Assembly: GCA_963701085.1 (NCBI GenBank)
Contig: OY969561.1
Location: 1-64,000 of the forward strand
Length of the DNA: 64,000 bases
From: an uncultured bacterium
GTDB lineage: Bacteria > Babelota > Babeliae > Babelales > Vermiphilaceae
Reading direction: 5' to 3'
How positions within the stretch are numbered: the stretch's first letter is position 1; each line of letters starts with the position of its first letter. Made by a program: the position numbers and the translations under genes. Shown in pieces: positions 21,063 through 56,277 of this stretch. The notes under the pieces are model-generated. The model was not told where the DNA came from. It did not search any database and worked only from the letters and a program-made list of their open reading frames with translations.

Positions 21063-21086
21063 GCGGTACATCATACGCTATTACGT

Positions 21087-37242: not shown

Positions 37243-37258
37243 ACAAAAGTATTAATTC

Positions 37259-37295
37259 AAAAAGCCTCATCTGTAAAAGGATGAGGCTTTTTTTT
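37259..37295. terminator. Intrinsic terminator
   Basis: AAAGCCTCATC-loop-GATGAGGCTTTTT; related copy at 38886-38917. Confidence 0.8.
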
Positions 37296-37387
37296 AGAGA
37301 GGAAAAAGATCATAGAAAGTTTCGCTTTTTGTAATAGATTGAGAGTTTTTTTATGCGTTCAATAATTTCTGAAGTTGAAATTCCTTT
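37294..37387 (-). pseudogene. Duplicated 3' fragment of the LicD-cytidylyltransferase gene
   Basis: Near-identical to 38918-39010. Confidence 0.9.
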
Positions 37388-37718
37388 TGCCATTGCGCGT
37401 GCAATATTGAAAAATGCGCCAATTCTTATTCTTGATGAAGCAACAAGTCAGCTTGATTCGGTAACAGAGAGTGAAATTCAAGATAGTATATGGGATTTGA
37501 TGCAGAATAAAACAACATTGATCATAGCGCACCGTCTTTCTACGTTACTTCATATGGATCGCATTCTCGTTTTTGATCAAGGCACTATTGTGGAGGATGG
37601 TTCTCATGAAGAGCTGCTCGAAAAAGACGGCCTCTATAAAAAGTTGTGGGAAGCCCAAATTGGTGGCTTTTTGATAGATAATGGCGATGAGATTGTTCAT
37701 CATACATGGAGTAATTGA
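37387..37718 (+). pseudogene. Duplicated 3' fragment of the ABC exporter gene with an alternative C-terminus
   Basis: 37387-37672 near-identical to 35716-36001 ([20 protein letters not shown]...WEAQIGGFL). Confidence 0.9.
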
Positions 37719-37786
37719 TTAATGATTTCTAATGTGATAGGTTTCTTTTTGATAGTATTTATTAATTTTTCTAAAAAGGAGAAAAG

Positions 37787-38866
37787 ATGCAAGAAAAAAT
37801 TGTTTCTAGATTTTCAAAAATAGTAATACCAGCTATTTTGTTGTCCCTTCATATGCAATCTTTTGGAGTTGTTGCATATATGTCTCAAACGTTAAGAGAA
37901 TGTATAGCTGTAGTTTATGAACGAGCTGGATCTAATTGTCGTAAGCAAGCATTAGAAGAATTATATGAGGCTATTAGAGAAAATAGAATGTTGGCTCCTG
38001 ATACTATTGTTTCTCAGGGGATAGCAGAAGCTATTGAAGTTATTAATTCGTCTAATCGCAGTAATCAAAGAGAAATCATTCAATATTTAGAACAATACCT
38101 TAATAATTTAAATGACAGAGGCGTATTGCTTGCTCTTAATGGAGATATGTCTCGAGTCAGATCATGGCCATTGGGATTAATTGAACGTTCTATGATGTTA
38201 GATCAGAGAGAAGCGTGTGATTTGTTGCGTTTAAGTAATGAATTATCATGTAATTTAATATTTTGTGGTAGTGAAGAGAATGGAGTTTCATTAGATGCGT
38301 CCGTAATGAAGAATATTAAACGAGCTTTTACTGATCCATCAATTAATTTTAGGCCGAATGGTATGACTAATTCACAGTCATTAACACCGACCATTATTCT
38401 TGGTGGCACTGGTGTTAATTCTCCTGTTATTAATGGATGGGCTTTAACTCCGAATGATCTGCAATTCCCCGTTAATGTGCAATTTGTGATTCCTGATGAT
38501 TTTGCAAGTCATCAACCAGTAAGCTTAGAACTTGGTTTTTTGATACCAAATAATGGACTTGTTAATGGATATGCAAATTTTTTAGTACAAGCAAAATATT
38601 TAGATTCAAAGCATAGTTTTAATCCTAATGATGTTAGTTGGACGCATGCAAATACATCCGGTAATATAAAAATAACAGAAGCTTCAAATTCAGATAATGT
38701 AAAATATATGCTTATTAATATTCCTCTTTCAAAATCACATATAAAACCTGGTTATTTTGCAATGTTAAGTGTTTCTCGCACATCGCCAACGGGTGGTAAA
38801 TCTGAATATGCTGGTGATCTTTCGCTTGTATCAGCAGTATTCAAATATACATCGCTAAGTAACTAA
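37787..38866 (+). CDS. Secreted hypothetical protein B (diverged paralogue of A)
   Basis: AAGGAG RBS, signal peptide, motifs shared with 36115-37242. Confidence 0.8.
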   Translation: MQEKIVSRFSKIVIPAILLSLHMQSFGVVAYMSQTLRECIAVVYERAGSNCRKQALEELYEAIRENRMLAPDTIVSQGIAEAIEVINSSNRSNQREIIQYLEQYLNNLNDRGVLLALNGDMSRVRSWPLGLIERSMMLDQREACDLLRLSNELSCNLIFCGSEENGVSLDASVMKNIKRAFTDPSINFRPNGMTNSQSLTPTIILGGTGVNSPVINGWALTPNDLQFPVNVQFVIPDDFASHQPVSLELGFLIPNNGLVNGYANFLVQAKYLDSKHSFNPNDVSWTHANTSGNIKITEASNSDNVKYMLINIPLSKSHIKPGYFAMLSVSRTSPTGGKSEYAGDLSLVSAVFKYTSLSN

Positions 38867-38917: not shown

Positions 38918-40069
38918 CTATAGAGGAAAAAGATCATAGAAAGTTTCGCTTTTTGTAATAGATTGAGAGTTTTTTATGCGCTCAATAATTTCTGAGGTTG
39001 AAATTCCTTTGGTGTAGGGTGTTATTCGCATAATATTCATAGCTAATGGGTCAGCAAAGTAAGTTTGGAGTGTGCTTGTGGCAAAATCATCACCATGAAC
39101 TACAAAATCAATATTATGAAGTTTAATAAAATCTTTGGTGGGAGCGAGTGGTGCAGAGCAAATAATTTCATCAACATATTTGCATCCGGCCATTACTTGG
39201 GCTCGTTCGTCTTGTCGTAAAATGGGTTGTCTTTTGTATGCGGTTGCTACATCATCAGGTATTAATCCTACGATCAGATGTGTTCCAAGAGCACGTGCTT
39301 GTTTGAGAAATGCTACATGACCATAATGGAATAGGTCGCCTACCATGCTTGCATAGACGCGGATGGAATCTGTTGATTTTTTTAACACGCGATTATGAAG
39401 TGGGCCAGTTGGTTGAGCGGCAATCATATCATCTGTGGTAAGTTCTCGTTCTTCTTGAATATTAAAAAAATGGTTCCATATTTTTCCGTAATGTGGCCAA
39501 TTTGGTGAAAATGATGCATTAAGATAGGGAATTGGATTGTTTGGTCCTAATACTATTGTTTCTCCAAAAGTATAAACTCGCAAGGGATAAAGCTCTTGTT
39601 TTGTTATATAGATTGGTTGATCATCTCTTTGCATCCAATGTTGTTCATAATAAATTTTGTCATTTTTTTCTATGGTTAAAAAGATATCTATACAAGGAGA
39701 ACCTTTGAGTTCGCCAAAGGTAAAGACTTCTTGATTTGTGATTTTGTAGCCAAACCATACCGGTGTTATTCCGTAATTGAGCCGTTGAAAGTCGGGAAGT
39801 AATGAAACAAATAGTTCTTCATCATCTAATTTGATATTGATATCAATATCATCATCCCAGGGAATAATTCCTTTGTGCCGAACTGCGCCCAGTAATGTTC
39901 CTCCTTGGATCCAGTATTCAAGTTTGTTAAGCGTAAAAAGTTCATGGGTGTCTTTCATGAGTTGGTATAGGTGAAGATACCATGCATCAGGCATTAATTG
40001 GTTGTTCTGTGTAGCACCACATAAAGTGAATAGATATAAAAAAGTAATGAGTAGAGTAGTTTTATGCAT
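38918..40069 (-). CDS. LicD-family phosphotransferase fused to a cytidylyltransferase domain
   Basis: YWIQGGTLLGAVRHKGIIPWDDDID (LicD); DLFHYGH (HxGH), [22 protein letters not shown] (CTP_transf_like); signal-like N-terminus. Confidence 0.9.
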   Translation of the reverse strand: MHKTTLLITFLYLFTLCGATQNNQLMPDAWYLHLYQLMKDTHELFTLNKLEYWIQGGTLLGAVRHKGIIPWDDDIDINIKLDDEELFVSLLPDFQRLNYGITPVWFGYKITNQEVFTFGELKGSPCIDIFLTIEKNDKIYYEQHWMQRDDQPIYITKQELYPLRVYTFGETIVLGPNNPIPYLNASFSPNWPHYGKIWNHFFNIQEERELTTDDMIAAQPTGPLHNRVLKKSTDSIRVYASMVGDLFHYGHVAFLKQARALGTHLIVGLIPDDVATAYKRQPILRQDERAQVMAGCKYVDEIICSAPLAPTKDFIKLHNIDFVVHGDDFATSTLQTYFADPLAMNIMRITPYTKGISTSEIIERIKNSQSITKSETFYDLFPL

Positions 40070-41090
40070 ATTGTTTTTCCGTTATGGTTGGTTGATTTAT
40101 TATGTGATTATATAAGTTATTATATTTTGAACAGTCGGCAGTAACATGTTTTACATCTCCTGGTCGTGCTGGCATAAATAAAAATTCATTGTTGTAGGTT
40201 GGATGTTTTTTTTTCAATATATCGATGATATCAAAAATGGTGCTGCTTTTTCCTGTTGCAATATTAAACAGTTCGCCTTGCATAAGTTTTTTTTCACACA
40301 TGCCAAAGAGTATGTTTGCTTCAACAACAGTTTCTACTGGTACATAGTCACGTGTTTGTGTGCCATCACCAAAAATAGTGAGAGGAAGATTATGTTTCAT
40401 GTTGTGCATGAATTTTGCAATGACACCAGCGTAGCTTGCTTGTGGATTTTGACGGAGACCGTAAACATTAAAATAGCGCATTACGACCGTTTCCATATTA
40501 AATGCTTGAGCATATTCTTTGCAGTATAGCTCTCCTATGAGTTTTGAAAAACCGTAAGGGGATATTGGATTTGGTTGTTTTGTTTCAGTGCATTGACCGG
40601 TAGTGTCTCCATAGGTGGCACATGTTGAAGAGAAAACAAAACGTTTAACGCCATTAATGCGTGCAGCTTCAAGCAAGTTTTGTGTTCCAGTGACATTGAT
40701 GGTATGACATTTTTGAGGATCTTCCATGGATCCTGGTACAGATACAAATGCAGCAAGGTGAAAAATAATTTTTTTATTATGCGTTGCTATTAAACATGTT
40801 TCTAAATCGGTGATGCTGCCACAAATGAGAGTAACTTTATCCTTTACGGTAGCAATATTATTTTCATTGCCGGTACTTAAATCATCTAATATTGATACTT
40901 TTGCGCCAAGGTCAACCAGTTTTTCAACAAGATGAGATCCAATAAATCCGCAGCCTCCGGTCACGAGCACAGGAACTCCTTTATAGATATTTTCATATAT
41001 GTTGGCATGTAATCCTATAAAGTTGGTTAATATAGTTAATAGCGTTACAAAGGCTATTGCCGACAGATTAACATTAAAAATATATTTCAT
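40062..41090 (-). CDS. NAD-dependent nucleotide-sugar epimerase/dehydratase (WbpP/GalE-like SDR)
   Basis: VTGGCGFIGSH, YGFSK (YxxxK), RYFNVYG, GDGTQTRD; hydrophobic N-terminal extension. Confidence 0.92.
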   Translation of the reverse strand: MKYIFNVNLSAIAFVTLLTILTNFIGLHANIYENIYKGVPVLVTGGCGFIGSHLVEKLVDLGAKVSILDDLSTGNENNIATVKDKVTLICGSITDLETCLIATHNKKIIFHLAAFVSVPGSMEDPQKCHTINVTGTQNLLEAARINGVKRFVFSSTCATYGDTTGQCTETKQPNPISPYGFSKLIGELYCKEYAQAFNMETVVMRYFNVYGLRQNPQASYAGVIAKFMHNMKHNLPLTIFGDGTQTRDYVPVETVVEANILFGMCEKKLMQGELFNIATGKSSTIFDIIDILKKKHPTYNNEFLFMPARPGDVKHVTADCSKYNNLYNHIINQPTITEKQYA

Positions 41091-41307
41091 TATTTGTCCT
41101 TAATAATATGTATTGTTTTTTTTATATTGATCTTAAGTAAGATGATATGGCAAATCATAGATATAATTTTAGTTCATAGTCAGATGATTGAGTTATAAAC
41201 GTTTTTGTTGGTGAATAAATATAATATTGTTGTAGTCGATTTTGTTTTTTTTGAATGATAGAACTTATATAAGAGTTTTTTTAATTGTATAACTAAAGGA
41301 GTGTTGT

Positions 41308-42177
41308 ATGAAGTTACACTTTTTAAGCAGCAGTATGCTGTGTTTGTTCATAGTAAGTAGTACTGTATTGGCGCATAATACTAATCAGAGTGTTCTACAA
41401 AATAGTGGAAATAATTATACACCAATCGAATGTACTATAATTCCAAAGCATCAATCAGAAAGTAATATTTCACATCCGCATATACCAGGCCCTCGGACAT
41501 CACGAGTTCCAAGTCATCAAGCCTCAAGTACTAACTGGAGTGGCTATGCAGCTGAAACTAATTTCAGTCATCCTCAAAAAAATTCAGTTTCTGCCGTGTC
41601 TGGATCATGGATTGTTCCAACAATTGTAGCAACAGGAATTGACGATTATGCCGCCTTATGGGTAGGTATTGATGGATATAGTACTTCCACCGTTGAACAA
41701 ATAGGCACGGAACATGATTCTATTGGTGGTATTCAGCAAGATTATGCATGGTTTGAAATGTATCCAGGAGGAAGTTATCTTATTAGTGGTTTTCCACTTA
41801 ATCCGGGAGATGTAATTAGCGCATCAGTAGTATTTATTGGACATAATACTTTTGTTATGACATTGATGAATGATACACGACAAGTATCTTTTACTGTTCC
41901 AACCCAATATACCAAATCATCAACAGCATTGAGAGAATCTGCTGAGTGGATTGTAGAAGCGCCGTATTACAATGGTATATTGCCATTAAGTGATTTTGTA
42001 ACGGCCTATATGTTTGGTTGTATGGCAACTATCAATGGTGCTACTGGTCCAATAGGTAATCACTCATGGCAAAATATTGGTATTGAAATGGTAACCAATA
42101 ATGGTATGTCAAAAGATCTTACTTCGCCATTATTGCCAGATAAGGGATCTTTCTTTGTTACATGGCATCATCAATAA
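41308..42177 (+). CDS. Secreted glutamic peptidase, family G1 (eqolisin-like)
   Basis: SSTNWSGY, WVGIDG, EQIGT (catalytic Gln), AWFEMYP, SAEWIVE (catalytic Glu); signal peptide and propeptide. Confidence 0.88.
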   Translation: MKLHFLSSSMLCLFIVSSTVLAHNTNQSVLQNSGNNYTPIECTIIPKHQSESNISHPHIPGPRTSRVPSHQASSTNWSGYAAETNFSHPQKNSVSAVSGSWIVPTIVATGIDDYAALWVGIDGYSTSTVEQIGTEHDSIGGIQQDYAWFEMYPGGSYLISGFPLNPGDVISASVVFIGHNTFVMTLMNDTRQVSFTVPTQYTKSSTALRESAEWIVEAPYYNGILPLSDFVTAYMFGCMATINGATGPIGNHSWQNIGIEMVTNNGMSKDLTSPLLPDKGSFFVTWHHQ

Positions 42178-42257
42178 AAAAATTTTTATGAAATTGTTTT
42201 TATTGCCCCATTATTTGATTAGGTGGGGCATTTTTTTTAATTAATAAAGGAGGGATA

Positions 42258-43250
42258 ATGAGGCTGCTTAGATTGATATTGTGTTTGATTTTTGTTTGTG
42301 TTGCCAGTAATGCTCAAGAGACATTTTTTTCAAAAGTAATCATCTGGGGTCATCCATTACATTCTCATACACACTCATATATTCATGGAGCTTTTTATCG
42401 TGCTTTTAAGCACCTTGGCTATGAGGTTTATTGGGTAGATAGCCTAGATGCAATGCACAATGTTGATATTCATAATGCATTGTTTATTACTGAGGGGCAG
42501 GTTGATGCAGACATGCCAAGACGGCATGATTGTTATTATATACTTCATAATTGGGATCCTGAGAATTATTGGGAGTTATTTGATGATAATCGTTGCATTC
42601 TTTTGCAGGTATATACAAATGAGTGTTTATCTTATGTTACCGAAAAAGTGGATGATTATATTTATAGTAATAGCAAAGAAAAAATGATTTTTATGCCTTG
42701 GGCAACAGATTTACTGCCATATGAAATTGATGATATAAAGAATGGTTGCAATAAAAAAATCAAAAAAGATAATGCTATTACGTGGGTTGGTACTATTGGC
42801 GATGGGAGGTTTGGCAACCAGAATGAGTTAGCTGTGTTTAAAAAAGCTTGTGCAGAAAATAATATTCTATTTAACCATAGGGTCAATGTACCCGAGGAAG
42901 AAGGAATTTCTTTAATTCAAACTTCATGTATGGCGCCAGCTATACAGGGATCCTACCAATGTGAAAAGGGTTATATTCCTTGTAGGATTTTTAAAAATAT
43001 TAGTTATGGGCAATGGGGCATAACCAATAATAAAACGGTGTATGATTTGTTCAAGGGTAAAATAATTTATAATTCTGATACATATCAGTTATTTTATGAT
43101 GCCCAGGAATATATTGCTCAAGCATCAATAGAAGAGTTATATGAATTAATGGATTTTGTAAGAAATAATCATACCTATATTAATCGTATTGAAACATTAT
43201 TAATGTTTATGAAAAAGGCATTACATATAAAGGAAGAATATGAAGAATAA
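42258..43250 (+). CDS. Putative glycosyltransferase (GT-B-like C-terminus) with signal peptide
   Basis: AFKHLGYEV, YIPCRIFKNISYG, VRNNHTYINR resemble CgeB/Glyco_trans_1_2-type termini; glycan locus context. Confidence 0.55.
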   Translation: MRLLRLILCLIFVCVASNAQETFFSKVIIWGHPLHSHTHSYIHGAFYRAFKHLGYEVYWVDSLDAMHNVDIHNALFITEGQVDADMPRRHDCYYILHNWDPENYWELFDDNRCILLQVYTNECLSYVTEKVDDYIYSNSKEKMIFMPWATDLLPYEIDDIKNGCNKKIKKDNAITWVGTIGDGRFGNQNELAVFKKACAENNILFNHRVNVPEEEGISLIQTSCMAPAIQGSYQCEKGYIPCRIFKNISYGQWGITNNKTVYDLFKGKIIYNSDTYQLFYDAQEYIAQASIEELYELMDFVRNNHTYINRIETLLMFMKKALHIKEEYEE

Positions 43251-44019
43251 TAAGGCATTGTTCGCTATTTTTTTGTGTAATTTTTTATCAGTTTATGCTG
43301 ATGATAGCATTAATAGAATATTAGATACATATAGAGATTATTTGGAGCAGGGTACGTATGTTGGATTTGATTGGTCTCATTATATAAAAAAGCCTGAATC
43401 GCGTTATTATACCTTTAAAATGGCATTTGAGCATTTTAAGGAAAGTAGTGGACGTGTTGTTGTTGAATTAGGGACATCGAGGAGTTTTGTGCATGGTGGG
43501 CATCCTGGATGTAATCTTGATGATATACAGTATTGGACTCCCAAAGATCCAAAAAATTGGGACTGGGGTGCAGGATTTTTTACGCGTATGGCAGCTGAAT
43601 GTTTATCTCATCTTAATCCAATAATTCATACGGTTGACCTTATACCAGCTCATATTGAGCGTTGTAAGGTAATTACTGCTGATCTGAATAATTATCTTAT
43701 GTATCACGTTGCATCTTCAGTTGATTTTCTAAAAAACTGTGCACCGCAGAGTATTGATTTGCTTTATGTTGATACAGGTGATATGACGCCAATAGAGCCA
43801 ACAGCGCAATTACAATTGGAAGAGGCTAAGGTTATTGTGGCGCAGGACTTATTGGCACCAAGTGGCATAATTTTAATTGATGATGTGCGTAATCAAACAC
43901 CAAAGCAATATGGAGAAACATCTGAGTTGGGCAAGGCAAAATATTCCATTCCTTATTTTCTTGCCCATGGTTTTGAAATTATTGCTGATGAATATCAGGT
44001 AATTTTACAAAAAAAGTAG
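43240..44019 (+). CDS. Class I SAM-dependent methyltransferase with signal peptide
   Basis: VVELGT, IDLLYVDT, GIILIDD motifs. Confidence 0.75.
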   Translation: MKNNKALFAIFLCNFLSVYADDSINRILDTYRDYLEQGTYVGFDWSHYIKKPESRYYTFKMAFEHFKESSGRVVVELGTSRSFVHGGHPGCNLDDIQYWTPKDPKNWDWGAGFFTRMAAECLSHLNPIIHTVDLIPAHIERCKVITADLNNYLMYHVASSVDFLKNCAPQSIDLLYVDTGDMTPIEPTAQLQLEEAKVIVAQDLLAPSGIILIDDVRNQTPKQYGETSELGKAKYSIPYFLAHGFEIIADEYQVILQKK

Positions 44020-44020
44020 T

Positions 44021-44719
44021 TTAATTGTTTGTGTTCATGAATAAAACATTACCATGCCAATGAGGCTGTATGTCAGACCATATTTCTATAAAGTCATGAT
44101 CATTCATCCATGAGGTAAGTTCATCATACATGACGCAGTTTTCCCAGAAACGTTGTAAATTTACTTCTGTATAAATAAGTTTTACATTTTTTAATGAATT
44201 GAGTGCTCCTTGTAGAGCATTCAATTCATTTCCTTCCATATCAAGCCATAAAAAATCAATGGCACTCACATTATTGTTGTTTGCCCACTCATCTAATGTA
44301 GTAACTTGAACGGTAATGGGATGATCTAAGTCTGAGTGGAAATAGTCTGTATTAAAAGAATCTTGTGGCCGTAAAAGTGAACTTGCTCCGCCGGCTAGAT
44401 AAAAAAGAAATTCACCTTTTGTGTTTGATAGTGCAACTTGTGTAGCCGTGACATTGTCGTTTTTAGTCGCGACTATTTGAAGTGCTGCAAATGATTCTGG
44501 TGATGGTTCAAAGGCATAAATTTTTCCTTGTGGCCAAAGCTGACTCATCCATTGAGTATCTTCACCAAATTGTGCACCAGCTTCGATAATTATTGGATTT
44601 GATGGTAATATCTTTTTGAGTAATACATATGGCACTGCTTCACCTATTGCGTGAGTAATGTTGGTTTGTGCTGCTAAAAACAATAATAATAATGTGTGTA
44701 ATATTTTTTGTGATTGCAT
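44021..44719 (-). CDS. FkbM-family methyltransferase with signal peptide
   Basis: IIEAGAQFG, YAFEP, TTLD, IDFLWLDMEGNELNALQG; likely start MQSQK after AGGGA RBS. Confidence 0.88.
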   Translation of the reverse strand: MQSQKILHTLLLLFLAAQTNITHAIGEAVPYVLLKKILPSNPIIIEAGAQFGEDTQWMSQLWPQGKIYAFEPSPESFAALQIVATKNDNVTATQVALSNTKGEFLFYLAGGASSLLRPQDSFNTDYFHSDLDHPITVQVTTLDEWANNNNVSAIDFLWLDMEGNELNALQGALNSLKNVKLIYTEVNLQRFWENCVMYDELTSWMNDHDFIEIWSDIQPHWHGNVLFMNTNN

Positions 44720-44738
44720 GACTTCCCTTTTTTTTAGA

Positions 44739-45836
44739 TTAATGATTATCGGTGATTTGGCTAAAAATTGACTTCCATTTTTTGATTGTTGCAGCGCGAT
44801 GCTTTTGCGCATACAGTTTTATTTTTGTGCGCAATGCATCAAAGTCAGCTGAATCAATTTTACGTTTAAGATCATCCCACGAATCAAAATATGTTATGAT
44901 TTCACTGTTTTCTCTATTGTACCATTCTGCGAGTTGATAATTGTTTTTAAAATAATTACCATTTTGCCACCAAATTTTTCCTGTGTCTAAGTTGTTAATC
45001 ATAAAGGTAATGGATGGTATGAAGTAGGGTAATCCATTCTGTATGTTTTCAAAGAATGCAACATTAGACCATGCGTAGGGAATATGAATTATGCCTTTAA
45101 AGTCTTTTAAATCACTTGGCCCATTGTATCTTCCATTGTATGCGTTGACTCCTTGGCGTGAACATTCTTGTATAAGATTCATAGATATATCATTAAGATA
45201 AGGTGGAATGAAGAATGTTTGTGATTTATCTATATATGCAGGAATGATAGACTGATTGTTCTGTGTAGTAATAATACCACTTGGTTGTATTGCTTCATGG
45301 TTAAAGATAATGATTTTTTGTTGTGCATAAAAAGATTCAAAAGCGGTGTAAGGAATAGTATAGACGTTTTTTTTGTTTCTAGCTTGTTGAAAAAGATGAT
45401 AAAATTCTTTATCAGGAAATTCACAGTCCAAGCTTGCGAGGTCAGCGTAATCAAAGCGATTGCACACCCAAATAATGAGAGGTTTTGCATAATTGTTTTG
45501 TAAGAAAATTCGTGCAAGTGGTGCCGTGTCAGAGATGATAATTGCGTCAAATTGGTTGAAGTAATCTTTGTGTTTATTCCATATGTTTTCTGCACGTTCA
45601 TGGCCAATATTATAAAGAGTATTTCCCGTTGATGTACCATCAAATTCTTTTGGAGCTAAATCAGAAATAAAAAGAGATGTTACATTAAATTGTAGTTCTT
45701 GCGCTATTGTCTCTATTTCTCGCAAGCATCCTTTATGAAAACTTAGGTGCAAAACATATAATGAGGCACTACAGTAAGTGTGCATAACACCTAATAATAT
45801 ACAAAGAGATAAGAGGTATTTTATTAGGAAATTCAT
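44739..45836 (-). CDS. Secreted hypothetical protein, possibly a glycosyltransferase
   Basis: Signal peptide; located in the glycan operon; FFENIQNGLPYFIP and YFDSWDDL resemble GT-B C-termini. Confidence 0.55.
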   Translation of the reverse strand: MNFLIKYLLSLCILLGVMHTYCSASLYVLHLSFHKGCLREIETIAQELQFNVTSLFISDLAPKEFDGTSTGNTLYNIGHERAENIWNKHKDYFNQFDAIIISDTAPLARIFLQNNYAKPLIIWVCNRFDYADLASLDCEFPDKEFYHLFQQARNKKNVYTIPYTAFESFYAQQKIIIFNHEAIQPSGIITTQNNQSIIPAYIDKSQTFFIPPYLNDISMNLIQECSRQGVNAYNGRYNGPSDLKDFKGIIHIPYAWSNVAFFENIQNGLPYFIPSITFMINNLDTGKIWWQNGNYFKNNYQLAEWYNRENSEIITYFDSWDDLKRKIDSADFDALRTKIKLYAQKHRAATIKKWKSIFSQITDNH

Positions 45837-45838
45837 TT

Positions 45839-46648
45839 TTATTCTCTTATTTCGGCATGATTTTTATCAAGTGCTAATAATTTAGGAGAGCAAGTAGGGT
45901 ATCCTTTTTTTTCCCCGTTTTCTGGATAGCAGTATGAACGATCAAGAATTATGCTTGGTTGATTATCGATAAAATAACGATTTAAATGGCTTTCATCATG
46001 CCATATGGCGATGTAATTATGTTGTTCAATATCGGTGAAAATGTTGTTTGTGATACTATCTGCCATTTTTATAAATTCACTTGTTGTTCCTCCGTAAAAA
46101 CCACCAGCAAAATAATGAGTTCCTGAATCGTACGTTATGTAGGCTGTAGATTTTTCATTGCGATCATAGGGTGGTTCATTACCCCACAAAGGTTTATTTT
46201 TTTCAAAACCAGGATGTTGTGTTGCAACACGATCTGCTAAGATTTCATCACCTTCAGTTCCAACAAAAAGCATATCCGCATCCGTTGCAAACATGTAATC
46301 GGTTTGAGCAAAGAGATTTTTATGTTGATTGTATATTGAAAAGCGCATGAGGGTGTCATAAGGCCAGCCAAGTCGTTTTTGATAGGTAATAACAACGATA
46401 TCCTTGTAGGGGCTTTTTAGCAAACTATTGAGGCCATGAGCTGTACTATCAGTAAAAATGAAATAGGTTTTTTTATGATCAGGACAGAAGTATTTTTCTG
46501 CAGAATCAAGAAGTGGTTTGACGAATGCAATATACTTACCTGTTGCAACAATACATAATCCAATATGTAATGGGTTGCTATTAAGTGAAAACAATGTGCA
46601 GAGCAGTAGAAGCGATATATGTTTAATAGAGCAATTCATAATTTTCAT
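45839..46648 (-). CDS. Glycosyltransferase family 6 (ABO/alpha-1,3-Gal/GalNAc transferase-like)
   Basis: IVATGKY, YFIFTD, WPYDTLMRF, DAD, YFAGGFYGG, AIWHDESHLNRYF, LALDKNH. Confidence 0.9.
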   Translation of the reverse strand: MKIMNCSIKHISLLLLCTLFSLNSNPLHIGLCIVATGKYIAFVKPLLDSAEKYFCPDHKKTYFIFTDSTAHGLNSLLKSPYKDIVVITYQKRLGWPYDTLMRFSIYNQHKNLFAQTDYMFATDADMLFVGTEGDEILADRVATQHPGFEKNKPLWGNEPPYDRNEKSTAYITYDSGTHYFAGGFYGGTTSEFIKMADSITNNIFTDIEQHNYIAIWHDESHLNRYFIDNQPSIILDRSYCYPENGEKKGYPTCSPKLLALDKNHAEIRE

Positions 46649-46659
46649 TGATTTCCTTT

Positions 46660-47556
46660 TTATCGAAGTATGAACGTTGGTTCATACTCAGTATGTACAG
46701 CTTTGTTTTTTATTTTGTAGAGTGGAGAAGTGTCCATTTTGTAGCCAGCTTCAAATTTTTCTAAAAGTTCTTCTGGTGTATAAAGGTTCATATCGCGATT
46801 GAGGATATTTATCGTTTGAACTTTATTGAGTGGTATGTTGAGTATTTTTGAATTTTCATAAAAAAGCCCGATGGGGCTTGGCGCTTTATGTTGTACCCAC
46901 CATGTGGCCCATTTTCCTTCTAAGAGATTGGGGTTTGTGTAATCAAGTGATTTAAAGAGAGAAATGAGATTTTTTTTACGGTATAAGGTCATATCGACGG
47001 TGTTTGGGTAATGCCAATCTTTTTCTCCTGATTCAAATTCCCATGCAAAAATAGTTTTATAGATGTGCGTGAGTGGTGGTATTTTTTGTGTAGCATTTTC
47101 TGTATAGCAGTAATCAAGATGTGATCCAAGTTTTAAGTAGAAGCCATAAGCATTTGTTTTTTCAAGCCAGTCAATGCATTCATGGATTATAATGTTATCT
47201 TTTACTACATTGTCATCAACAGCAAAGATGACATAATCAGAAGATGATGTTTCAATTGCTTGAATTGTTAATGTTTTAAAATCGCTGATACTTTGTTGAT
47301 GTAAAAATTGTACATGGGGAAATTGTGATGCTACTTCATTAAAAGCGGCATCATACCGATCGCTACTTGTGCGGTAAATCACTGCTGTTGAATTGATATC
47401 AGTTGCATATAAGTTCAATGATTCGAGGAGTGCATAAAGTTGTAGTGGTCGATCAAAAGAAAAAATTATAAGATCGGCAGCATATCGTTCTGAGGCTGTC
47501 TCTAGACAAAAAATATGAGTAAACAACAAGGACAGTATAACTATAGTTCTTTTCAT
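46660..47556 (-). CDS. Putative GT-A fold glycosyltransferase with signal peptide
   Basis: IIFSFDRPLQLYALLESL, FAVDD; homologous to the C-terminal half of 47573-49060. Confidence 0.6.
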   Translation of the reverse strand: MKRTIVILSLLFTHIFCLETASERYAADLIIFSFDRPLQLYALLESLNLYATDINSTAVIYRTSSDRYDAAFNEVASQFPHVQFLHQQSISDFKTLTIQAIETSSSDYVIFAVDDNVVKDNIIIHECIDWLEKTNAYGFYLKLGSHLDYCYTENATQKIPPLTHIYKTIFAWEFESGEKDWHYPNTVDMTLYRKKNLISLFKSLDYTNPNLLEGKWATWWVQHKAPSPIGLFYENSKILNIPLNKVQTINILNRDMNLYTPEELLEKFEAGYKMDTSPLYKIKNKAVHTEYEPTFILR

Positions 47557-47572
47557 GTGTCACTCTTCATTT

Positions 47573-49060
47573 TTATGGAATTAATGTAATATGGCTTTCA
47601 TAAAAACAGAGGCCAAGACGGTCAAGGTTTCCTTCATTGGCCCATACCGCCTCTAATCCATTTGGCGTGAGATCATAATGACTTTGTAATACTTGAGTAA
47701 GAGATTCTGTTTTCTTGTGAAGGACAAGATCAAGTGAGTTAGCACATGACCATTTGTCTTGAGCAAGGGCAAAGTTCCAGGTAAAGATATTTTCTCGACA
47801 CTCTACTAATGGTATATTGGGGTAGGTGCGCATACCATTGTTTGCATTAAGTTTAAAGTAAAAAGCGTATGTGTCCGTATCCTCTAGGTTTTTTATACAT
47901 TCATGCAGGGATAATGGTTGTTGAAATTGTGCATCTCCCTTTGCAAAAAGAATGTAGTCGTTGTTTGTTTTTTGATAAAGATCAAACAGAGAAATGCTAA
48001 AATTGCTTCGGTGATCACTGATTAGACAAAATTCTATTGCGGGATATGATTCTTGGATGGTGACATATTCTTTTGATTCTTGCGCGGATAATGGTCGGTA
48101 CATGACAAATATTTGATCAATGCCATTCACGTACATTGTTAAAGATTCGAATAATTGAGTAAGCTTGTTTGGGGTTTGCGCAAAAATAATAGCATCTGCC
48201 TTTACATGTTTGTGATTTCGTTTGTTTGTTGGTTTTTTTGAGAGACAATTATAGCGTTTTTTCTTTTTAATAAGTTGGGCTAAATATGCCTGAAGTTGTC
48301 TGCTGACATGATGGTCGCTGATGCTGTTTTCATCATTATAAATATACATAATGTCAGAAATAAATTGGTGACGCTTTCCTGCCATTTCTATCATGGGAAA
48401 CATCATAGCCATGTCCCAGGTCATAGAATAAAATTTTCCTAAGTATAATAAGTCTTCTAGTTTTATTTCTTTAAATAACCATGCATAAAACGTGCGTAAA
48501 TGAGTTGGTAAATGTTGAAAATCTCTGAACGCATTGTTTTCTACTATGTAATCAGGCATTGGTGATGCCCAGCCTCGTATTCCTGATGGATGTAGTTGAA
48601 ATTGTCCATAGGTAAGCCATATTTCACCTGATGAATAAACTTCGTTGAGACGCGACAATACGTTATCATCAGAGAACCAATCATCTCCGTCAAGTGTGAC
48701 AATAATTTCATCATCATTACAGCTATGAATCATGTTGTAAAGATTATGCAGCGCGCCTTTGCGAGTTTGGTTTTTTATAAGCGCTATTTTATTATCTGGA
48801 TCATTGTGGATGAGGTATTCTTCTACAAGGTCTCCTGTTCCATCAGGAGAGCAATCATCAGTATATATGACACGAAAATTCGTATAATTTTGGTAGAGCA
48901 CTGATTGAAGGTTGTGAGCATACCATTTTTGATTATTGTATGAGGGGATAACGATTACAAATGGTTTTTCTGGATAAGAGCTACTATTTGCTAAGCTTGG
49001 AATGAAAAATAATAAAGATAGTGTAGTGAAAACAGATAAGATGACTGTAAAAAGTTTCAT
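47573..49060 (-). CDS. GT2 glycosyltransferase with a second, degenerate GT-like domain; signal peptide
   Basis: VIVIPSYN, YTDDCSPDGT, TLDGDDW. Confidence 0.85.
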   Translation of the reverse strand: MKLFTVILSVFTTLSLLFFIPSLANSSSYPEKPFVIVIPSYNNQKWYAHNLQSVLYQNYTNFRVIYTDDCSPDGTGDLVEEYLIHNDPDNKIALIKNQTRKGALHNLYNMIHSCNDDEIIVTLDGDDWFSDDNVLSRLNEVYSSGEIWLTYGQFQLHPSGIRGWASPMPDYIVENNAFRDFQHLPTHLRTFYAWLFKEIKLEDLLYLGKFYSMTWDMAMMFPMIEMAGKRHQFISDIMYIYNDENSISDHHVSRQLQAYLAQLIKKKKRYNCLSKKPTNKRNHKHVKADAIIFAQTPNKLTQLFESLTMYVNGIDQIFVMYRPLSAQESKEYVTIQESYPAIEFCLISDHRSNFSISLFDLYQKTNNDYILFAKGDAQFQQPLSLHECIKNLEDTDTYAFYFKLNANNGMRTYPNIPLVECRENIFTWNFALAQDKWSCANSLDLVLHKKTESLTQVLQSHYDLTPNGLEAVWANEGNLDRLGLCFYESHITLIP

Positions 49061-49233
49061 GTAATTCTTCCTTTTTTTGTAATAGTGTCTGTAATTCTTA
49101 TGTTTGTCTTACCATGTGCTATTAGTCGTGTCAATTATAAACAGTTGAGTCTTGATTTGTGGTGTGTCTTATTGTTATTTTAAATATAGATAATTGGAGA
49201 TATTGTTAGGGAATAAATTTTTAAATAAGAGGC

Positions 49234-50244
49234 ATGATGTTGCACAATAGTTCTTTTTTACCGCAGTTTATGTTTTGGATATGCATTTTTTCATCAGCAA
49301 TGATATTTTCTATGCAAAAAGATGCAAAAATTTATGTTGCTGGACATCGGGGGTTAGTTGGTTCAGCTATTATGCGGGCTCTCAACGCTCAAGGTTATGC
49401 AAATATAATAGTCCGCGGTTCTTTTGAGTTGGATTTACGTAATCAGCAGGCAGTGAATGAATTTTTTGAACAGGAGCGACCAGAATATGTTTTTCTTGCA
49501 GCGGCAAAGGTTGGAGGTATTCATGCAAATAATATTTATCCTGCCCAATTTATTTACGATAATATAACTATTCAAACTAATATTATTCATGCAGCATATA
49601 TGAATAACGTAAAAAAACTTCTTTTTTTAGGGTCTTCATGTATTTATCCGCGTGATTGTCCTCAGCCAATTAAGGAAGAATATCTTTTAACATCCTCTCT
49701 TGAAAAAACAAATGAGGCTTATGCAATCGCAAAAATAGCCGGCCTAAAAATGTGTGAATATTATAATAAACAGTATGGAACTCATTTTATTGCCGTAATG
49801 CCCACTAATCTTTATGGACCATATGACAATTTTGATTTGGAATCATCGCATGTGATTCCTGCTTTAATTGTAAAAATTTATAATGCCTATCGAGCCAATA
49901 GTCCAACATGTGAAGTGTGGGGAACTGGTAATCCACGGCGTGAATTTTTACATGTTGATGATCTTGCGCAGGCACTCTTGTTGTTAATGAATACATATGA
50001 TAGTAATGGTATTGTTAATATTGGTTCAGGACAAGACCTTTCAATTCGTGAGCTTGTTACACTTATTAAAAATAGTATCGGGTATGAAGGCGAAATTGTG
50101 TGGAACAGTTCTCAGCCTGATGGGACTCCGCGCAAGTTACTCAATATTGACACGTTAATAAGTATGGGTTGGCAGCCACAAATATCTTTGTTTGATGGAC
50201 TGATCGATACGATATCCTGGTGCAAGAATAATGGTGTTTTTTAG
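49234..50244 (+). CDS. fcl: GDP-L-fucose synthase with a hydrophobic N-terminal extension
   Basis: AGHRGLVGSA, AAAKVGGI, LGSSCIYP, YAIAK, PTNLYGP, SHVIPAL, WGTG..RREF. Confidence 0.95.
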   Translation: MMLHNSSFLPQFMFWICIFSSAMIFSMQKDAKIYVAGHRGLVGSAIMRALNAQGYANIIVRGSFELDLRNQQAVNEFFEQERPEYVFLAAAKVGGIHANNIYPAQFIYDNITIQTNIIHAAYMNNVKKLLFLGSSCIYPRDCPQPIKEEYLLTSSLEKTNEAYAIAKIAGLKMCEYYNKQYGTHFIAVMPTNLYGPYDNFDLESSHVIPALIVKIYNAYRANSPTCEVWGTGNPRREFLHVDDLAQALLLLMNTYDSNGIVNIGSGQDLSIRELVTLIKNSIGYEGEIVWNSSQPDGTPRKLLNIDTLISMGWQPQISLFDGLIDTISWCKNNGVF

Positions 50245-50284
50245 TTAAATGTATGTTTTTTGGACACTTTTTTAGGGGTGAATA

Positions 50285-51391
50285 ATGAAAAAGCAGAATT
50301 ACGTATTATTATTAGTTTTCTTTTCTTATTTTTCGTATGCATTAGACAAAATAGCAATGATTATTGGGGTAACTGGTCAGGATGGGGCATATCTTTCTGA
50401 ATTTTTACTTAATAAAGGGTATATCGTTCATGGTATTAAGCGAAGAGCTTCTCTTATTAATACGCAACGGATTGATCATTTATATGAGAATCCTGATTAT
50501 TATGGGCGGTTTTTTTTACATTATGGAGATGTGACCGATAGTTCTAACATAATTCGTCTTATTCAGGAGATTCAACCAGATGAGATTTATAATTTATCCG
50601 CGCAAAGTCATGTGCAGGTTTCATTTGAAATGCCATTATATACGGCAGAGGTTGATGCTCTTGGGCCGTTGCGAATTCTTGAAGCGATACGTATTGTGAG
50701 CGGTGCAAAAAAAATAAAATTTTATCAGGCATCAACAAGTGAAATGTTTGGTTTAGTTCAAGAGATACCACAAACTGAAACTACGCCTTTTTATCCTCGA
50801 TCTCCCTATGGTGTTGCAAAATTGTATGGGCATTGGATTACTAAAAATTATCGTGAGTCATATGGAATATTTGCTTGTTCAGGAATTCTTTTCAATCATG
50901 AATCACCTGTTCGAGGCGAAACTTTTGTAACACGCAAAGTTTCACGTGCGGTAGCACGGATAGCATATGGCTTACAGGATGTCCTCTATCTGGGTAATTT
51001 GGAGGCGCTGCGCGATTGGGGCCATGCAAGAGACTATGTTGAGGCTATGTGGCTCATGTTGCAACAAGATACTCCGGATGATTTTGTTATTGCTTCAGGT
51101 GAAAATCATTCAGTAAGAGAGTTTGTTGAGCGTGCCTTTGCAGAAATTGGCGTAGATATAGCGTGGGAGGGAAAAGGTCTTGATGAAGTTGGTTATGATC
51201 GAAAAACAGGTAGAGAATTAATATTTGTTGATGCGCGTTATTTTAGGCCAGCAGAAGTTGATCTGCTGATTGGAGATTCCGCAAAAGCACGTAACGTGTT
51301 AGGTTGGCAAGCCAGAACTACCTTTACCCAATTGGTTAAAGAAATGGTAGATCATGAACTTAAGAGCTTGAAAAAAATGTGCGGTCATTAG
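50285..51391 (+). CDS. gmd: GDP-mannose 4,6-dehydratase with a signal-like N-terminal extension
   Basis: [61 protein letters not shown]. Confidence 0.96.
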
Positions 51392-52373: not shown

Positions 52374-53510
52374 TTAATATTCTTTTTCTAATACACGCAC
52401 ATACGATTCAAAGAGATATGCTTTATTACGTTGCCGTTGAGCTGTATGAGCAACTAATATTCCACTTTCAATAAATTGTTTTATGAGATTGTTGGCAGTA
52501 TTGTAGCTTTTGTTTAAGTGTATACTGAGTTCTGTAGCAGTAATGATTGGAAACTGAAACAAAATAGTTAGTGCATTTTCAGCCAGTTCCTTTATTTTTT
52601 GAAACGCCTTGCTGGAATGTATGGTCTGTTTAATGTTCTGCTCCAAGCTTTCTATATCTTTTGTTCTTTTATAGGCATCACTGCTGCTTTCTAGGATTGC
52701 ATTAAGATAATACTTAATCCATCCTTCAAAATCACCGTGTGTTCTGACGCGGTCGAGGTGTATATAGTATTCATGATGATGTTTTTTAAAGTAGTATGAT
52801 GGGTAAATAATAGGTGTTGATAGTAAGTTGCTATCAACAAGCATAAGCACGATGAGTAAGCGTCCTATACGACCATTGCCATCTAAAAAGGGATGAATTG
52901 TCTCGAACTGAACGTGAGCAAGACCTGCTTTAATGAGTGGAGGTAGTGAATCATCTTTATTAATAAATTGAGCAAGTTGCGCCATGAGATCTGGAATTTT
53001 TGCGGCGTATGTTGGTATAAGATTGCCGACGCGTACAGGTAATTGGCGATAATGTCCTGGATCTGCTTTGTTGGCATCATTGTCTAGATGCATGAGTTCT
53101 TTATGAGCTTTGAGGATAACTTGTGAGGCTATGGGAAGTCCATCTTGTTTAACCATGGAACAGGCTATTTCAAGTGCTTTTGTATAATTAAGCACTAATT
53201 GTGTCTCTTTATTGAGTTGTGCTCCAGAAAGAGGTTGGGTAAAAACGTCAAGAAGTGTTGTATGGATGCCTTCAATGGCTGATGATAAAAGAGCTTCTTT
53301 GATGACATATGCCTTAATGAATCTTTTTTGGTTTGGAAGTTTGCTAGTTATTTCATTTAACTGTCCTAGTTGATTCATTGCTGAGCCATAAAGGCTTGTT
53401 GTTTCTTCATCAATTACTAAAGAGGGATTGTGGGGAGGCAGAGGATGAGGAATAAAATAGTTTATAGTGCCAATCGTTTCATAGATGCCTGTTATTCTTT
53501 TCATATTCAT
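52374..53510 (-). CDS. Fic family protein (N-terminal Fic_N/DUF4172-like region, C-terminal HTH-like region)
   Basis: HPFLDGNGRIGR Fic motif; EALLSSAIEG inhibitory motif. Confidence 0.93.
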   Translation of the reverse strand: MNMKRITGIYETIGTINYFIPHPLPPHNPSLVIDEETTSLYGSAMNQLGQLNEITSKLPNQKRFIKAYVIKEALLSSAIEGIHTTLLDVFTQPLSGAQLNKETQLVLNYTKALEIACSMVKQDGLPIASQVILKAHKELMHLDNDANKADPGHYRQLPVRVGNLIPTYAAKIPDLMAQLAQFINKDDSLPPLIKAGLAHVQFETIHPFLDGNGRIGRLLIVLMLVDSNLLSTPIIYPSYYFKKHHHEYYIHLDRVRTHGDFEGWIKYYLNAILESSSDAYKRTKDIESLEQNIKQTIHSSKAFQKIKELAENALTILFQFPIITATELSIHLNKSYNTANNLIKQFIESGILVAHTAQRQRNKAYLFESYVRVLEKEY

Positions 53511-53687
53511 AAACTAACCTATCTTAAGAGGTGTTATATGCTTAATCTCTCAAATAAGAATAGCTTTTTTGTCTTCTTATTTCAACTTAGAGGTCTAAAC
53601 TGAAATAAGGAGCTGAAATTTTCTCTCTTATTTCAGTCTAGGGCTATTTTTTGAAATAACAATGCCGATAAAAAAAGGATGACCTAT

Positions 53688-54773: not shown

Positions 54774-54880
54774 TATATGTCCATGTTAAAATATTTTTTC
54801 AATTATTTGTATCATGACTGTTTTTGATGCTGTATTGAGTTTAACGGTAAACATGAAGAAAAAAAAAGGGTTATATTTTC

Positions 54881-55855: not shown

Positions 55856-55912
55856 GTCTTCTTTACAAAACTTCAATGTTAATTTTTTTTGCAATATTGA
55901 TTTGTTGGCGTA

Positions 55913-55944
55913 GCCAGACGAAGTTGCGCAGCAACGAAGACTGG
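55913..55944 (-). repeat. Family A repeat fused to the CCA of tRNA-Ser(TGA)
   Basis: Minus strand CCAGTC-TTC-GTTGC-TGC-GCAAC-TTC-GTCTGG. Confidence 0.8.
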
Positions 55945-56033
55945 AGGAGAGAGTGGGATTCGAACCCACGATCCCGATCTCTCGGAATAACGGTTTTCAA
56001 GACCGCCGCATTCGGCCGCTCTGCCATCTCTCC
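55942..56033 (-). tRNA. tRNA-Ser(TGA)
   Basis: GGAGAGATGGCAGAGCGG...CT-TGA-AA, long variable arm, GGTTCGAATCC...CCA. Confidence 0.95.
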
Positions 56034-56059
56034 ATCGATATATGTAAAAGAATTGTTTT

Positions 56060-56237: not shown

Positions 56238-56277
56238 ATATATTTCAAAATTTAATCAATCGATTTTTACTTTTTAT

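Follow-up and report, generated by a model that had tools for sequence, protein, structure and literature searches.

Signal-peptide-like leaders on the enzymes of a glycan-biosynthesis locus from a Dependentiae (TM6) bacterium

Organization of the glycan locus

The DNA analyzed here is a stretch of 64,000 nucleotides (the window) from an uncultured bacterium of the Vermiphilaceae (GenBank assembly GCA_963701085.1, contig OY969561.1, positions 1 to 64,000). The best matches with names for proteins encoded in it came from Candidatus Babeliales/Dependentiae. Positions 38918 to 51391 of the window, referred to below as the locus, hold 12 closely packed open reading frames (ORFs) in four co-oriented runs, which encode 11 glycan enzymes and one peptidase. 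A preliminary description of the window had pointed out that all 11 glycan enzymes begin with an extension ahead of the conserved domain, and had proposed that the whole pathway is exported. Re-examination of the ORFs confirmed the extensions, with the N-termini as quoted there, and revealed another on the peptidase; the observation proved robust in the comparisons presented below.

The plus-strand run from 49234 to 51391 consists of the genes for GDP-L-fucose synthase (Fcl; 49234 to 50244) and then GDP-mannose 4,6-dehydratase (Gmd; 50285 to 51391). Fcl aligned with NF047922 over its full length but scored just under the curated cut-off (462.2 bits against 500; E value, 8.4e-139), and named homologues at 81 to 83% identity are labelled GDP-L-fucose synthase. 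Its Pfam domain, from residue 33, is preceded by a hydrophobic extension of 26 residues and then by a conserved Met at the ancestral start. Gmd scored 577.8 bits against TIGR01472 (cut-off, 415), with a Pfam domain from residue 25 behind a signal-peptide-like (SP-like) segment that spans residues 1 to 19 or 20. The NADP motif of Gmd is intact (GVTGQDG), and the protein aligned without gaps to 1db3 across the conserved core blocks, including ASTSE, in a comparison of blocks rather than of individual catalytic residues. No second, leaderless copies of gmd or fcl were found within the window.

Five genes run on the minus strand from 49060 to 44021. The first (47573 to 49060) encodes a 495-amino-acid GT2 glycosyltransferase (PF00535, 2e-21, domain from residue 36) that has a second GT-A-like domain and an SP-like segment at about residues 1 to 24. 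The 298-amino-acid GT-A-like protein that follows (46660 to 47556; SP-like residues about 1 to 17) gave a weak GT2 match in Pfam from residue 30 (E value, 0.0044) and is paralogous to the C-terminal half of the GT2 protein (30% identity over 220 amino acids, residues 288 to 495). The third gene (45839 to 46648) codes for a GT6 glycosyltransferase of the ABO/alpha-1,3-Gal(NAc) transferase family (PF03414, 9.4e-47, 159.8 bits against a cut-off of 25), with the domain starting at residue 26 after SP-like residues about 1 to 24; its score against the NCBIfam subfamily model NF041524, 201 bits, was under the cut-off of 250. The closest relatives of this protein were Bacteroides BoGT6a (4ayj, 8e-41), with an alignment that begins at query residue 28, and the human ABO transferases. 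The DxD motif reads DAD where the metal-independent bacterial BoGT6a has NAN, and at this motif the predicted protein resembles the metal-dependent animal enzymes.

The fourth product of this run, a 365-amino-acid protein (44739 to 45836; SP-like residues about 1 to 24), has no Pfam model. Its AlphaFold model had a mean predicted local distance difference test score (pLDDT) of 93.1, with residues 3 to 20 modelled as a free helix. In a Foldseek comparison with the PDB, the matches listed were all glycosyltransferases (probability, 1.0; TM-scores, 0.40 to 0.53), and the neighbors among them were mostly of the UGT/macrolide GT-B kind. The model shows a GT-B fold, glycosyltransferase-like protein. 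The family comprises 915 homologues, of which those with names came from Babeliales/Dependentiae, Simkaniaceae, Parachlamydia, and Verrucomicrobiota. The last gene encodes an FkbM-family methyltransferase (PF05050, 1.6e-27; TIGR01444, 89 bits; domain from residue 78). Its ORF extends from 44021 to 44812; the probable start at codon 32 gives a gene from 44021 to 44719 and the SP-like N-terminus MQSQKILHTLLLLFLAAQTNITHA.

A second minus-strand run, from 41090 to 38918, contains two genes that overlap by 8 nucleotides. The first encodes a nucleotide-sugar 4-epimerase-like enzyme of the short-chain dehydrogenase/reductase (SDR) superfamily (40062 to 41090; SP-like residues about 1 to 29; Pfam Epimerase, 5.9e-57, domain from residue 41), whose best PDB matches were the UDP-hexose 4-epimerases 4zrm, WbgU, and WbpP. 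The second (38918 to 40069) encodes a LicD phosphotransferase domain fused to a cytidylyltransferase (LicD-CT; Pfam LicD, 8.4e-19; CTP_transf_like, 2.1e-18; domain from residue 48), with SP-like residues at about 1 to 19 (MHKTTLLITFLYLFTLCGA). The N-terminal domain of this protein matched FKRP (6kaj), and the C-terminal domain was closest to human ethanolamine-phosphate cytidylyltransferase (3elb, 2.7e-34) and to choline-phosphate cytidylyltransferases.

The remaining plus-strand run, from 41308 to 44019, includes an 11-nucleotide overlap and begins with the one gene for a non-glycan enzyme, a peptidase A4 family protein (41308 to 42177; PF01828, 8.4e-30, domain from residue 75) with an SP-like N-terminus by the heuristic described below. 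It ends with a Methyltransf_24 S-adenosylmethionine (SAM)-dependent methyltransferase (43240 to 44019; PF13578, 3.8e-06, 28.2 bits against a cut-off of 26.3, domain from residue 111; SP-like residues about 1 to 20 by the same heuristic). Between them lies the gene for a 330-amino-acid protein (42258 to 43250; SP-like residues about 1 to 19), for which no Pfam or NCBIfam family was found. A relaxed Pfam search gave a weak Glyco_trans_1_2 match (E value, 0.069), and its ESM Atlas neighbors were mostly viral hypothetical and 'glycosyltransferase family' clusters. Comparison with the GT-B family alignment by hhalign returned a probability of 0.2, and the single-sequence AlphaFold model was unusable (pLDDT, 43.6). 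A glycosyltransferase-like identity for this protein is only a lead.

The enzyme families named in the preliminary description were recovered with Pfam and NCBIfam, and of its three glycosyltransferase-like proteins one has a GT-B fold, one is GT-A-like, and the 330-amino-acid protein stays a lead. Two of the 12 ORFs have no Pfam family. No Pfam domains of a priming transferase, flippase, or polymerase/chain-length protein were detected in the 12 proteins. The earlier statement that there is no flippase therefore holds only inside the locus: 2.9 kb upstream, at 34263 to 36020 on the plus strand, is the gene for an ABC exporter in which a membrane domain and an ATPase domain are fused (Pfam ABC_membrane and ABC_tran).

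Leader sequences

Leaders were evaluated with a heuristic that is rule-based rather than a trained predictor and that looks for a net positive n-region, an uncharged hydrophobic core of 8 to 18 residues, and small residues at positions -3 and -1. All 12 locus proteins passed, FkbM from codon 32 only. Judged from the Pfam domain starts, the leaders all precede the first residue of the catalytic domain. The net charge of the n-region, with the amino terminus counted, was +1 to +3 in all 12; the weakest n-region is that of Fcl, which has no Lys or Arg and is charged at its amino terminus only. The hydrophobic cores of 8 to 18 residues fall short of the usual length of a membrane helix and had best 8-mer mean Kyte-Doolittle values of 2.56 to 3.74; those of LicD-CT, the peptidase, and the 495-amino-acid GT2 protein, at 17 to 18 residues, are of borderline length for an anchor. 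At least one small-residue -3/-1 site followed the core in each of the 12 proteins. In 11 of the 12 proteins, the residues after the core had either no net charge or a negative one; under the positive-inside rule, this would place the catalytic domain outside.

The consensus of the Gmd homologues has S-x-A at -11/-9 from the motif, 2 to 3 residues before the invariant Lys of strand 1, so that cleavage there would restore a native-like Gmd N-terminus. The Gmd structures 7kf3 and 1db3 begin at query residues 21 to 22. These properties support the view that the extensions have features of Sec-type signals processed by signal peptidase I (SPase I).

Two other kinds of signal were considered and rejected. 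Twin-arginine translocation (Tat) signals would require RR, which is found in none of the 12 leaders and in 1 of 110 Gmd extensions. Lipoprotein (SPase II) signals were sought by eye; some leaders contain cysteines, none of them in the context of a lipobox (L-[AS]-[GA]-C). The number of cysteines in mature Gmd (1.78 with a leader versus 2.44 without) differed little, was confounded by phylogeny, and was not used.

Translation starts

A search with regular expressions located Shine-Dalgarno (SD)-like motifs (AAGGA, GAGG) 5 to 10 nucleotides before the upstream ATG in 7 of the 12 genes. Examples are AAGGA before the SDR gene, AAGGAG before the peptidase gene, and AAGGAAG before the Methyltransf_24 gene. 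The upstream ATG of gmd is preceded by a near match, AGGGG. In the FkbM gene, codon 32 is an ATG at 44719 with the near match AAGGGAAG before it, and a start there also removes the overlap with the upstream gene. The FkbM leader is SP-like from this codon only and not from the ORF start that had been listed.

The preliminary description had considered that translation might begin at downstream codons, and had stated that Gmd has no Met before its first strand. The latter needs qualification, as there is a Met at codon 25. However, this Met lies inside strand 1, no SD motif precedes it, and the position of the ancestral start is not Met in relatives, so that Gmd has no usable downstream start. 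In Fcl, where the ancestral Met is retained, no SD motif was found before the internal Met in the window or in two related loci (L001 and L023, introduced below). These results indicate that the leaders are translated from the upstream start.

Conservation of the leaders and orthologue control

Leader conservation was examined among the 120 best Gmd homologues (67 to 100% identity) and 120 Fcl homologues, and the alignments bore out the expectation that the extensions are conserved in relatives. A hydrophobic extension was present in 110 of the 120 Gmd homologues, in which the basic/hydrophobic/S-x-A layout was kept and the sequence was not. The 10 without an extension include three that look truncated on contigs of <1.7 kb and one just under the threshold. 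The Fcl homologues comprised 82 that were extended, 27 that had been called from a downstream Met, and 11 that were unclear. In the family of the GT-B protein, 37 of the 40 N-termini printed were SP-like by eye, including entries from Babeliales, Simkaniaceae, and Parachlamydia. LicD-CT, Methyltransf_24, GT6, and the 298-amino-acid protein stand outside this homologue comparison. In a FastTree phylogeny for which 198 Gmd sequences were trimmed to the mature domain, the leader trait was clustered, with 7 changes compared to about 63 when labels were shuffled. The leaders are shown to be maintained by selection throughout the clade.

As a control, gmd was scanned for in species-representative genomes, which yielded 80 loci, mostly from Bacteroidota along with other phyla; the source genome was not among them. 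No hydrophobic extension was present in 74 of the 78 loci with the motif, which were mainly from other phyla, and Gmd started within 13 residues of GxTGQDG in 69 of the 78 (7 to 13 residues before the motif). Thirty-five of the extension-free Gmd genes of other bacteria were from loci with a GC content of <0.38. In a Flavobacteriales locus (L020), a spurious-looking open frame lies upstream of gmd, with the canonical MKKKALITG start inside it. Gmd was extended in three of the scanned loci: L001 (uncultured bacterium; GC content, 0.34), L015 (labelled Chlamydiae), and L023 (Candidatus Dependentiae bacterium Noda2021). Fcl is extended in L001 and L023 too. The leaders are shown by this contrast to be lineage specific and absent from orthologues in other bacteria. 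The contrast carries weight because the heuristic alone is unspecific.

For the SDR epimerase, the comparison drew on 150 listed representatives of a 50%-identity set in which no close Dependentiae orthologues were sampled; a hydrophobic N-terminus directly upstream of the motif was seen in 2 of the 112 that had the motif, and leader conservation covers P0242 and P0247. In another representative, P0345, the hydrophobic segment is longer and lies at a considerable distance upstream of the domain.

The related loci also contain relatives of other enzymes of the locus. In L001, an orthologue of the 298-amino-acid protein adjoins Gmd (45% identity), and relatives of the 495-amino-acid GT2 protein are found beside Fcl and Gmd in both L001 (41%) and L023 (33%). 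Further families of the eukaryotic Golgi type occur in these two loci with SP-like N-termini. Around Fcl-Gmd in L001 (3343 to 20768), the proteins with such N-termini are a GT10 fucosyltransferase and a Sulfotransfer_1 protein, along with two Gly_transf_sug proteins and several GT2 proteins. In L023 (3056 to 8944), a UDP-glucose dehydrogenase (domain from residue 29) and a NUDIX protein, both adjoining Fcl-Gmd, have such N-termini, as do Gmd, a cyclopropane-fatty-acid-synthase-like methyltransferase, and a phosphoribosyltransferase in L015 (1 to 6210), which lie beside a porin of the Legionella_OMP family. Either the leader trait reaches beyond Dependentiae or the L015 contig is misassigned. 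SP-bearing leucine-rich-repeat proteins lie between the glycan genes in L001 and L023.

The leaders in their genomic context

The heuristic was also passed by 19 of the 30 other window ORFs of at least 150 amino acids, and by 32 of 41 ORFs in the three Dependentiae-like loci versus 277 of 903 in the other 77 loci. By these counts, the glycan locus is no outlier within its genome and appears as part of a phylum-wide habit. Housekeeping proteins had no leader, either in the window (cysteinyl-tRNA synthetase, DeoC aldolase, HIT, and YggU) or in L023 (Ndk, S1, the beta subunit of ribonucleotide reductase, and transaldolase).

A large secretome is already known for Dependentiae in general. In Chromulinavorax destructans, which grows in the host cytoplasm, 44% of coding sequences have a signal peptide according to Phobius (PMC6561590). 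In Babela massiliensis, signal peptides are present on 79 of 126 ankyrin proteins, which were predicted on that basis to reach the amoeba cytoplasm; a type II system was the only secretion system detected (PMC4378268). For the phylum, Sec together with type II secretion is reported as the only system found and has been proposed as the route (PMC4378268, PMC6561590). The preliminary description had named a T2SS-F/PilC gene in the window as a possible export route. The gene for this platform protein is present (57054 to 58241, plus strand; PF00482, 3.8e-41), but it does not indicate a route specific to the locus, as genes for type II secretion and for type IV pili belong to the core set of the phylum (PMC4776705).

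The extension of this secretome to a complete glycan pathway, nucleotide-sugar SDR enzymes included, appears to be undescribed in the literature searched. Within the text available from each paper, supplementary tables being outside the scope, the term 'glycosyl' was absent from PMC6561590, and 'fucose' and 'polysaccharide' were absent from PMC4378268 and PMC4776705. Literature on Dependentiae with GDP-mannose or glycosyltransferase was unrelated or, by title, incidental, and a search for GDP-mannose dehydratase with signal peptide and periplasm found nothing.

A proposed model for glycan synthesis outside the cytoplasm

Export is the best-supported explanation for the leaders. The reading that we propose, and to which we give an even chance, is that this is a Dependentiae (TM6) glycan-decoration locus in which each enzyme has a Sec-type, probably cleavable signal peptide and is exported. 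The earlier proposal of export is supported in part, by the Sec/SPase I-type features, the conservation within the clade, the leaderless housekeeping proteins, and the published work on the phylum; a special status of the locus within its genome is not supported.

We infer export, the compartment, the use of host cofactors, and the acceptor along the following lines. The enzymes would cross the inner membrane by Sec; Tat is unlikely because RR is found in so few of the Gmd extensions. They would then fold and load their cofactors outside the cytoplasm, and their site of action would be the periplasm, the cell surface, or, after type II secretion, the host cytosol. The host protist would supply GDP-mannose, NADPH, UDP-sugars, SAM, and CTP there. 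Host ATP must reach the inner-membrane translocases (PMC6561590, PMC4776705), and host nucleotides and nucleotide sugars could therefore plausibly reach the periplasm as well. Gmd and Fcl would convert host GDP-mannose to GDP-fucose; the GT6, GT2, and GT-B proteins would add sugars; and the two methyltransferases and LicD-CT would add methyl groups and phosphocholine or phosphoethanolamine. In this way, a fucose-containing glycan could be built directly on exported proteins, with no need of a lipid carrier, flippase, or polymerase.

By analogy with collagen-like proteins that are known to be glycosylated, the leading candidates for the acceptors are three SP-bearing collagen-like paralogues (877, 1,099, and about 1,326 amino acids) encoded on the plus strand at 14987 to 25253, 14 kb upstream of the locus. 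They have Pfam Collagen matches and a C-terminal Peptidase_S74 chaperone, and their triplets are GAT, GST, and GPT (G-x-T). An SP-bearing 2-oxoglutarate (2OG)-Fe(II) oxygenase, possibly a modifying enzyme, precedes them (13849 to 25253 for the whole group).

Several points weigh against export. We know of no established bacterial route by which NAD(P)-dependent Rossmann enzymes are exported through Sec, and the periplasmic NADP enzyme glucose-fructose oxidoreductase uses Tat; given the near-absence of RR in the Gmd extensions, loading of the cofactor would have to follow export. The heuristic passes 31% of ORFs in unrelated loci. A MutS-family ATPase in the window (MutS_III and MutS_V; 58264 to 60186; GTG start) has a strongly hydrophobic N-terminus, MIVLLLAIFSFFQFVSA, which is odd for a DNA-repair-type protein and serves as a warning that some segments of this kind may have nothing to do with export. 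The ABC exporter lies near the locus. Some glycan enzymes of relatives have no leader: a WecB-like UDP-GlcNAc 2-epimerase and a UDP-sugar dehydrogenase in L001, one GT2 protein and the FkbM homologue (37% identity) in L023, and Gmd in 6 of the 120 homologues, where the protein starts directly before the fold on an adequate contig. Fcl is the most ambiguous case: its core is followed by a net charge of +2, 27 of the 120 database entries are called from the downstream Met, and the ancestral start Met (at -6) is kept in 76 of the 82 extended homologues, being as conserved as the neighboring Lys and Ala. A leaderless cytoplasmic Fcl isoform made from the ancestral Met is possible, and retention of this Met could reflect dual initiation or a structural role.

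Alternatively, the leaders could be uncleaved signal anchors that hold the enzymes in the inner membrane, the catalytic domains facing the periplasm, as a Golgi-like tethered assembly line from which nothing is released. The long cores of LicD-CT, the peptidase, and the GT2 protein, the longer hydrophobic segment of P0345, and the free helix in the GT-B model are consistent with this, and the eukaryotic counterparts GT6, GT10, and UXS-type SDRs are type II membrane proteins with uncleaved anchors that are followed by stem regions. However, most of the cores are of 8 to 16 residues with a small-residue site after each, and the position of S-x-A in Gmd leaves no room for the stem or linker expected of a tethered enzyme. 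Anchoring of this kind therefore seems unlikely, although it is the alternative that we take most seriously. We consider it somewhat more improbable that the enzymes work in the cytoplasm, whether tethered to the inner face of the membrane, translated from downstream starts, or carrying a leader that Sec does not recognize. The enzyme families of this locus are cytoplasmic in other bacteria, as the orthologue control suggests for Gmd and as is established knowledge for the others. The retained Met of Fcl, its leader without Lys or Arg and with positive charge after the core, the leaderless nucleotide-sugar enzymes of L001, and the nearby ABC exporter, which could flip a lipid-linked product, also fit with cytoplasmic synthesis. 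Against this, an N-in, C-out orientation is predicted for 11 of 12 proteins from the positive charge of the n-region and the neutral or negative charge of the flank, Gmd has no usable downstream start, the internal Met of Fcl is without an SD motif in all three genomes compared, and the locus has no priming transferase.

That the enzymes are secreted effectors which glycosylate host molecules rather than bacterial proteins seems quite improbable. The phylum is predicted to secrete many SP-bearing proteins into the host cytoplasm (PMC4378268, PMC6561590). SP-bearing ankyrin proteins are encoded 2 to 4 kb downstream of the locus, and GT32-like proteins in L001 weakly match the glycosyltransferase domain of TcdA/TcdB. 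However, known glycosylating effectors typically make single-sugar modifications. A structural glycan is the better fit for a multistep pathway such as this one, which combines fucose synthesis with four or more transferases, two methyltransferases, and the addition of a phospho-substituent, and candidate bacterial acceptors are encoded nearby. Least likely by far is an annotation artefact in which a frame happens to be open upstream of the true start in AT-rich DNA. The 27 Fcl entries and the few Gmd entries called from a downstream start could be taken in its favor, but it was rejected on the basis of the SD-like sites before the upstream ATGs, the basic/hydrophobic/small-residue pattern that survives sequence divergence in most of the Gmd and Fcl homologues, and the absence of an open extension from 74 of 78 Gmd genes in the orthologue control, AT-rich loci included.

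Comparison with known systems

Bacterial surface glycans are generally assembled on lipid carriers in the cytoplasm, or else attached en bloc in the periplasm, and nucleotide sugars are considered to be confined to the cytoplasm. Classical Gmd and Fcl are cytoplasmic and feed lipid-carrier assembly with a priming transferase, flippase, and polymerase. The two genes studied here are adjacent and co-oriented, as in classical gmd-fcl modules of colanic-acid and O-antigen loci. Unlike those modules, the locus lacks the priming transferase, flippase, and polymerase, and Gmd has a leader before GxTGQDG.

Eukaryotic Golgi enzymes act on already-translocated proteins without a lipid carrier, and comparison with them reveals a similar arrangement in which transferases and a nucleotide-sugar SDR each have an N-terminal hydrophobic targeting segment. 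The GT6 protein has the DxD motif (DAD) of the mammalian enzymes, and L001 adds a GT10 and a Sulfotransfer_1 protein with similar N-termini. In contrast to Golgi enzymes, the leaders of the locus are short, abut the fold, look cleavable, and extend to Gmd and Fcl. In eukaryotes, GMD and fucose synthase are enzymes of the cytosol, from which a transporter carries GDP-fucose into the Golgi.

Glycosylated fibers provide another comparison. Bacillus BclA is a glycosylated collagen-like protein with GPT repeats, the glycosylation enzymes of which are found in the cytoplasm or mother cell and have no signal peptides, and the glycan of Mimivirus fibrils is made in the host cytoplasm by virus-encoded enzymes. 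The likeness to these systems lies in the G-x-T collagen-like, secreted, fiber-like proteins near the glycan locus, and is a matter of proximity.

The closest functional parallel is the glycogen system of the obligately intracellular Chlamydia trachomatis, in which secreted enzymes of glycogen metabolism draw on host UDP-glucose within the lumen of the inclusion (Gehre et al. 2016, PMC4829429). In both cases, sugar enzymes that are normally cytoplasmic have acquired secretion signals. The Chlamydia pathway runs, and that of the locus would run, outside the bacterium's own cytoplasm on host nucleotide sugar, although here the localization and the substrate source are deduced from targeting signals. 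The signals differ, being of type 3 in Chlamydia, where none of the enzymes has a signal peptide (PMC4829429), and Sec type here. The product in Chlamydia is a storage polymer in the vacuole, with no nucleotide-sugar interconversion, methylation, or protein glycosylation. The published Dependentiae secretomes concern the same phylum and the same kind of N-terminal signal; however, in the portions of the C. destructans and Babela papers drawn on here, it is proteases, nucleases, ankyrins, and ORFans that are treated, and nucleotide-sugar enzymes or a glycan pathway are not.

A broader proposal, which we hold with slightly less than even confidence, is that Dependentiae, and possibly Chlamydiae-like lineages (L015), carry out Golgi-like glycosylation outside their own cytoplasm, independently of a lipid carrier and with Gmd, Fcl, the 4-epimerase-like SDR, and Ugd among the exported enzymes. 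If so, the periplasm or host cytosol would be a metabolically active compartment to which the host supplies GDP-mannose, UDP-sugars, NADPH, SAM, CTP, and 3'-phosphoadenosine 5'-phosphosulfate, and the intracellular bacterium would be treating the host cytosol and an equilibrated periplasm as its own Golgi. Nucleotide-sugar biosynthesis by Sec-exported enzymes, and glycosylation of proteins after their export with soluble nucleotide sugars as donors, would both be firsts for bacteria. The pathway would be part of a wider outsourcing of cofactor-dependent metabolism; an SP-bearing phosphoribosyltransferase, NUDIX protein, sulfotransferase, and 2OG oxygenase were seen across the relatives and the window. 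Glycosylation of this kind would extend the 'sequestered host metabolism' idea from Chlamydia to protein glycosylation and to Sec-type signals, and would give part of the very large predicted Dependentiae secretome a concrete role. It would also help explain a complex coat in organisms reported to have neither lipopolysaccharide genes nor complete metabolic pathways; lipopolysaccharide genes were not seen in C. destructans (PMC6561590).

Other features of the window

The region between the ABC exporter gene and the locus (36115 to 38866) appears to contain a tandem duplication of a unit made up of the 3' end of the exporter gene, a gene of unknown function, and the 3' end of the LicD-CT gene. 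A remnant of the exporter 3' end (ORF 37353 to 37718, plus strand) abuts a LicD-CT remnant (37297 to 37392, minus strand) that has 59% identity to the last 32 residues of LicD-CT. Both remnants are situated between two paralogous SP-bearing proteins of unknown family, encoded at 36115 to 37242 and 37787 to 38866. Farther upstream, at 30061 to 32026, are two SP-like paralogues, one of which has a weak HAD_2 match and the other no Pfam family.

Downstream of the locus, the genes for the two SP-like ankyrin-repeat proteins (52374 to 55678) adjoin that of a Fic-domain protein without a leader. A cluster of tRNA genes on the minus strand (55942 to 56452) comprises tRNA-Ser-TGA, tRNA-Arg-ACG, and tRNA-Ser-GCT, and the ORFs at 55876 to 56210 are spurious translations of tRNA genes. 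A separate tRNA-Leu-CAA gene is located at 60237 to 60322.

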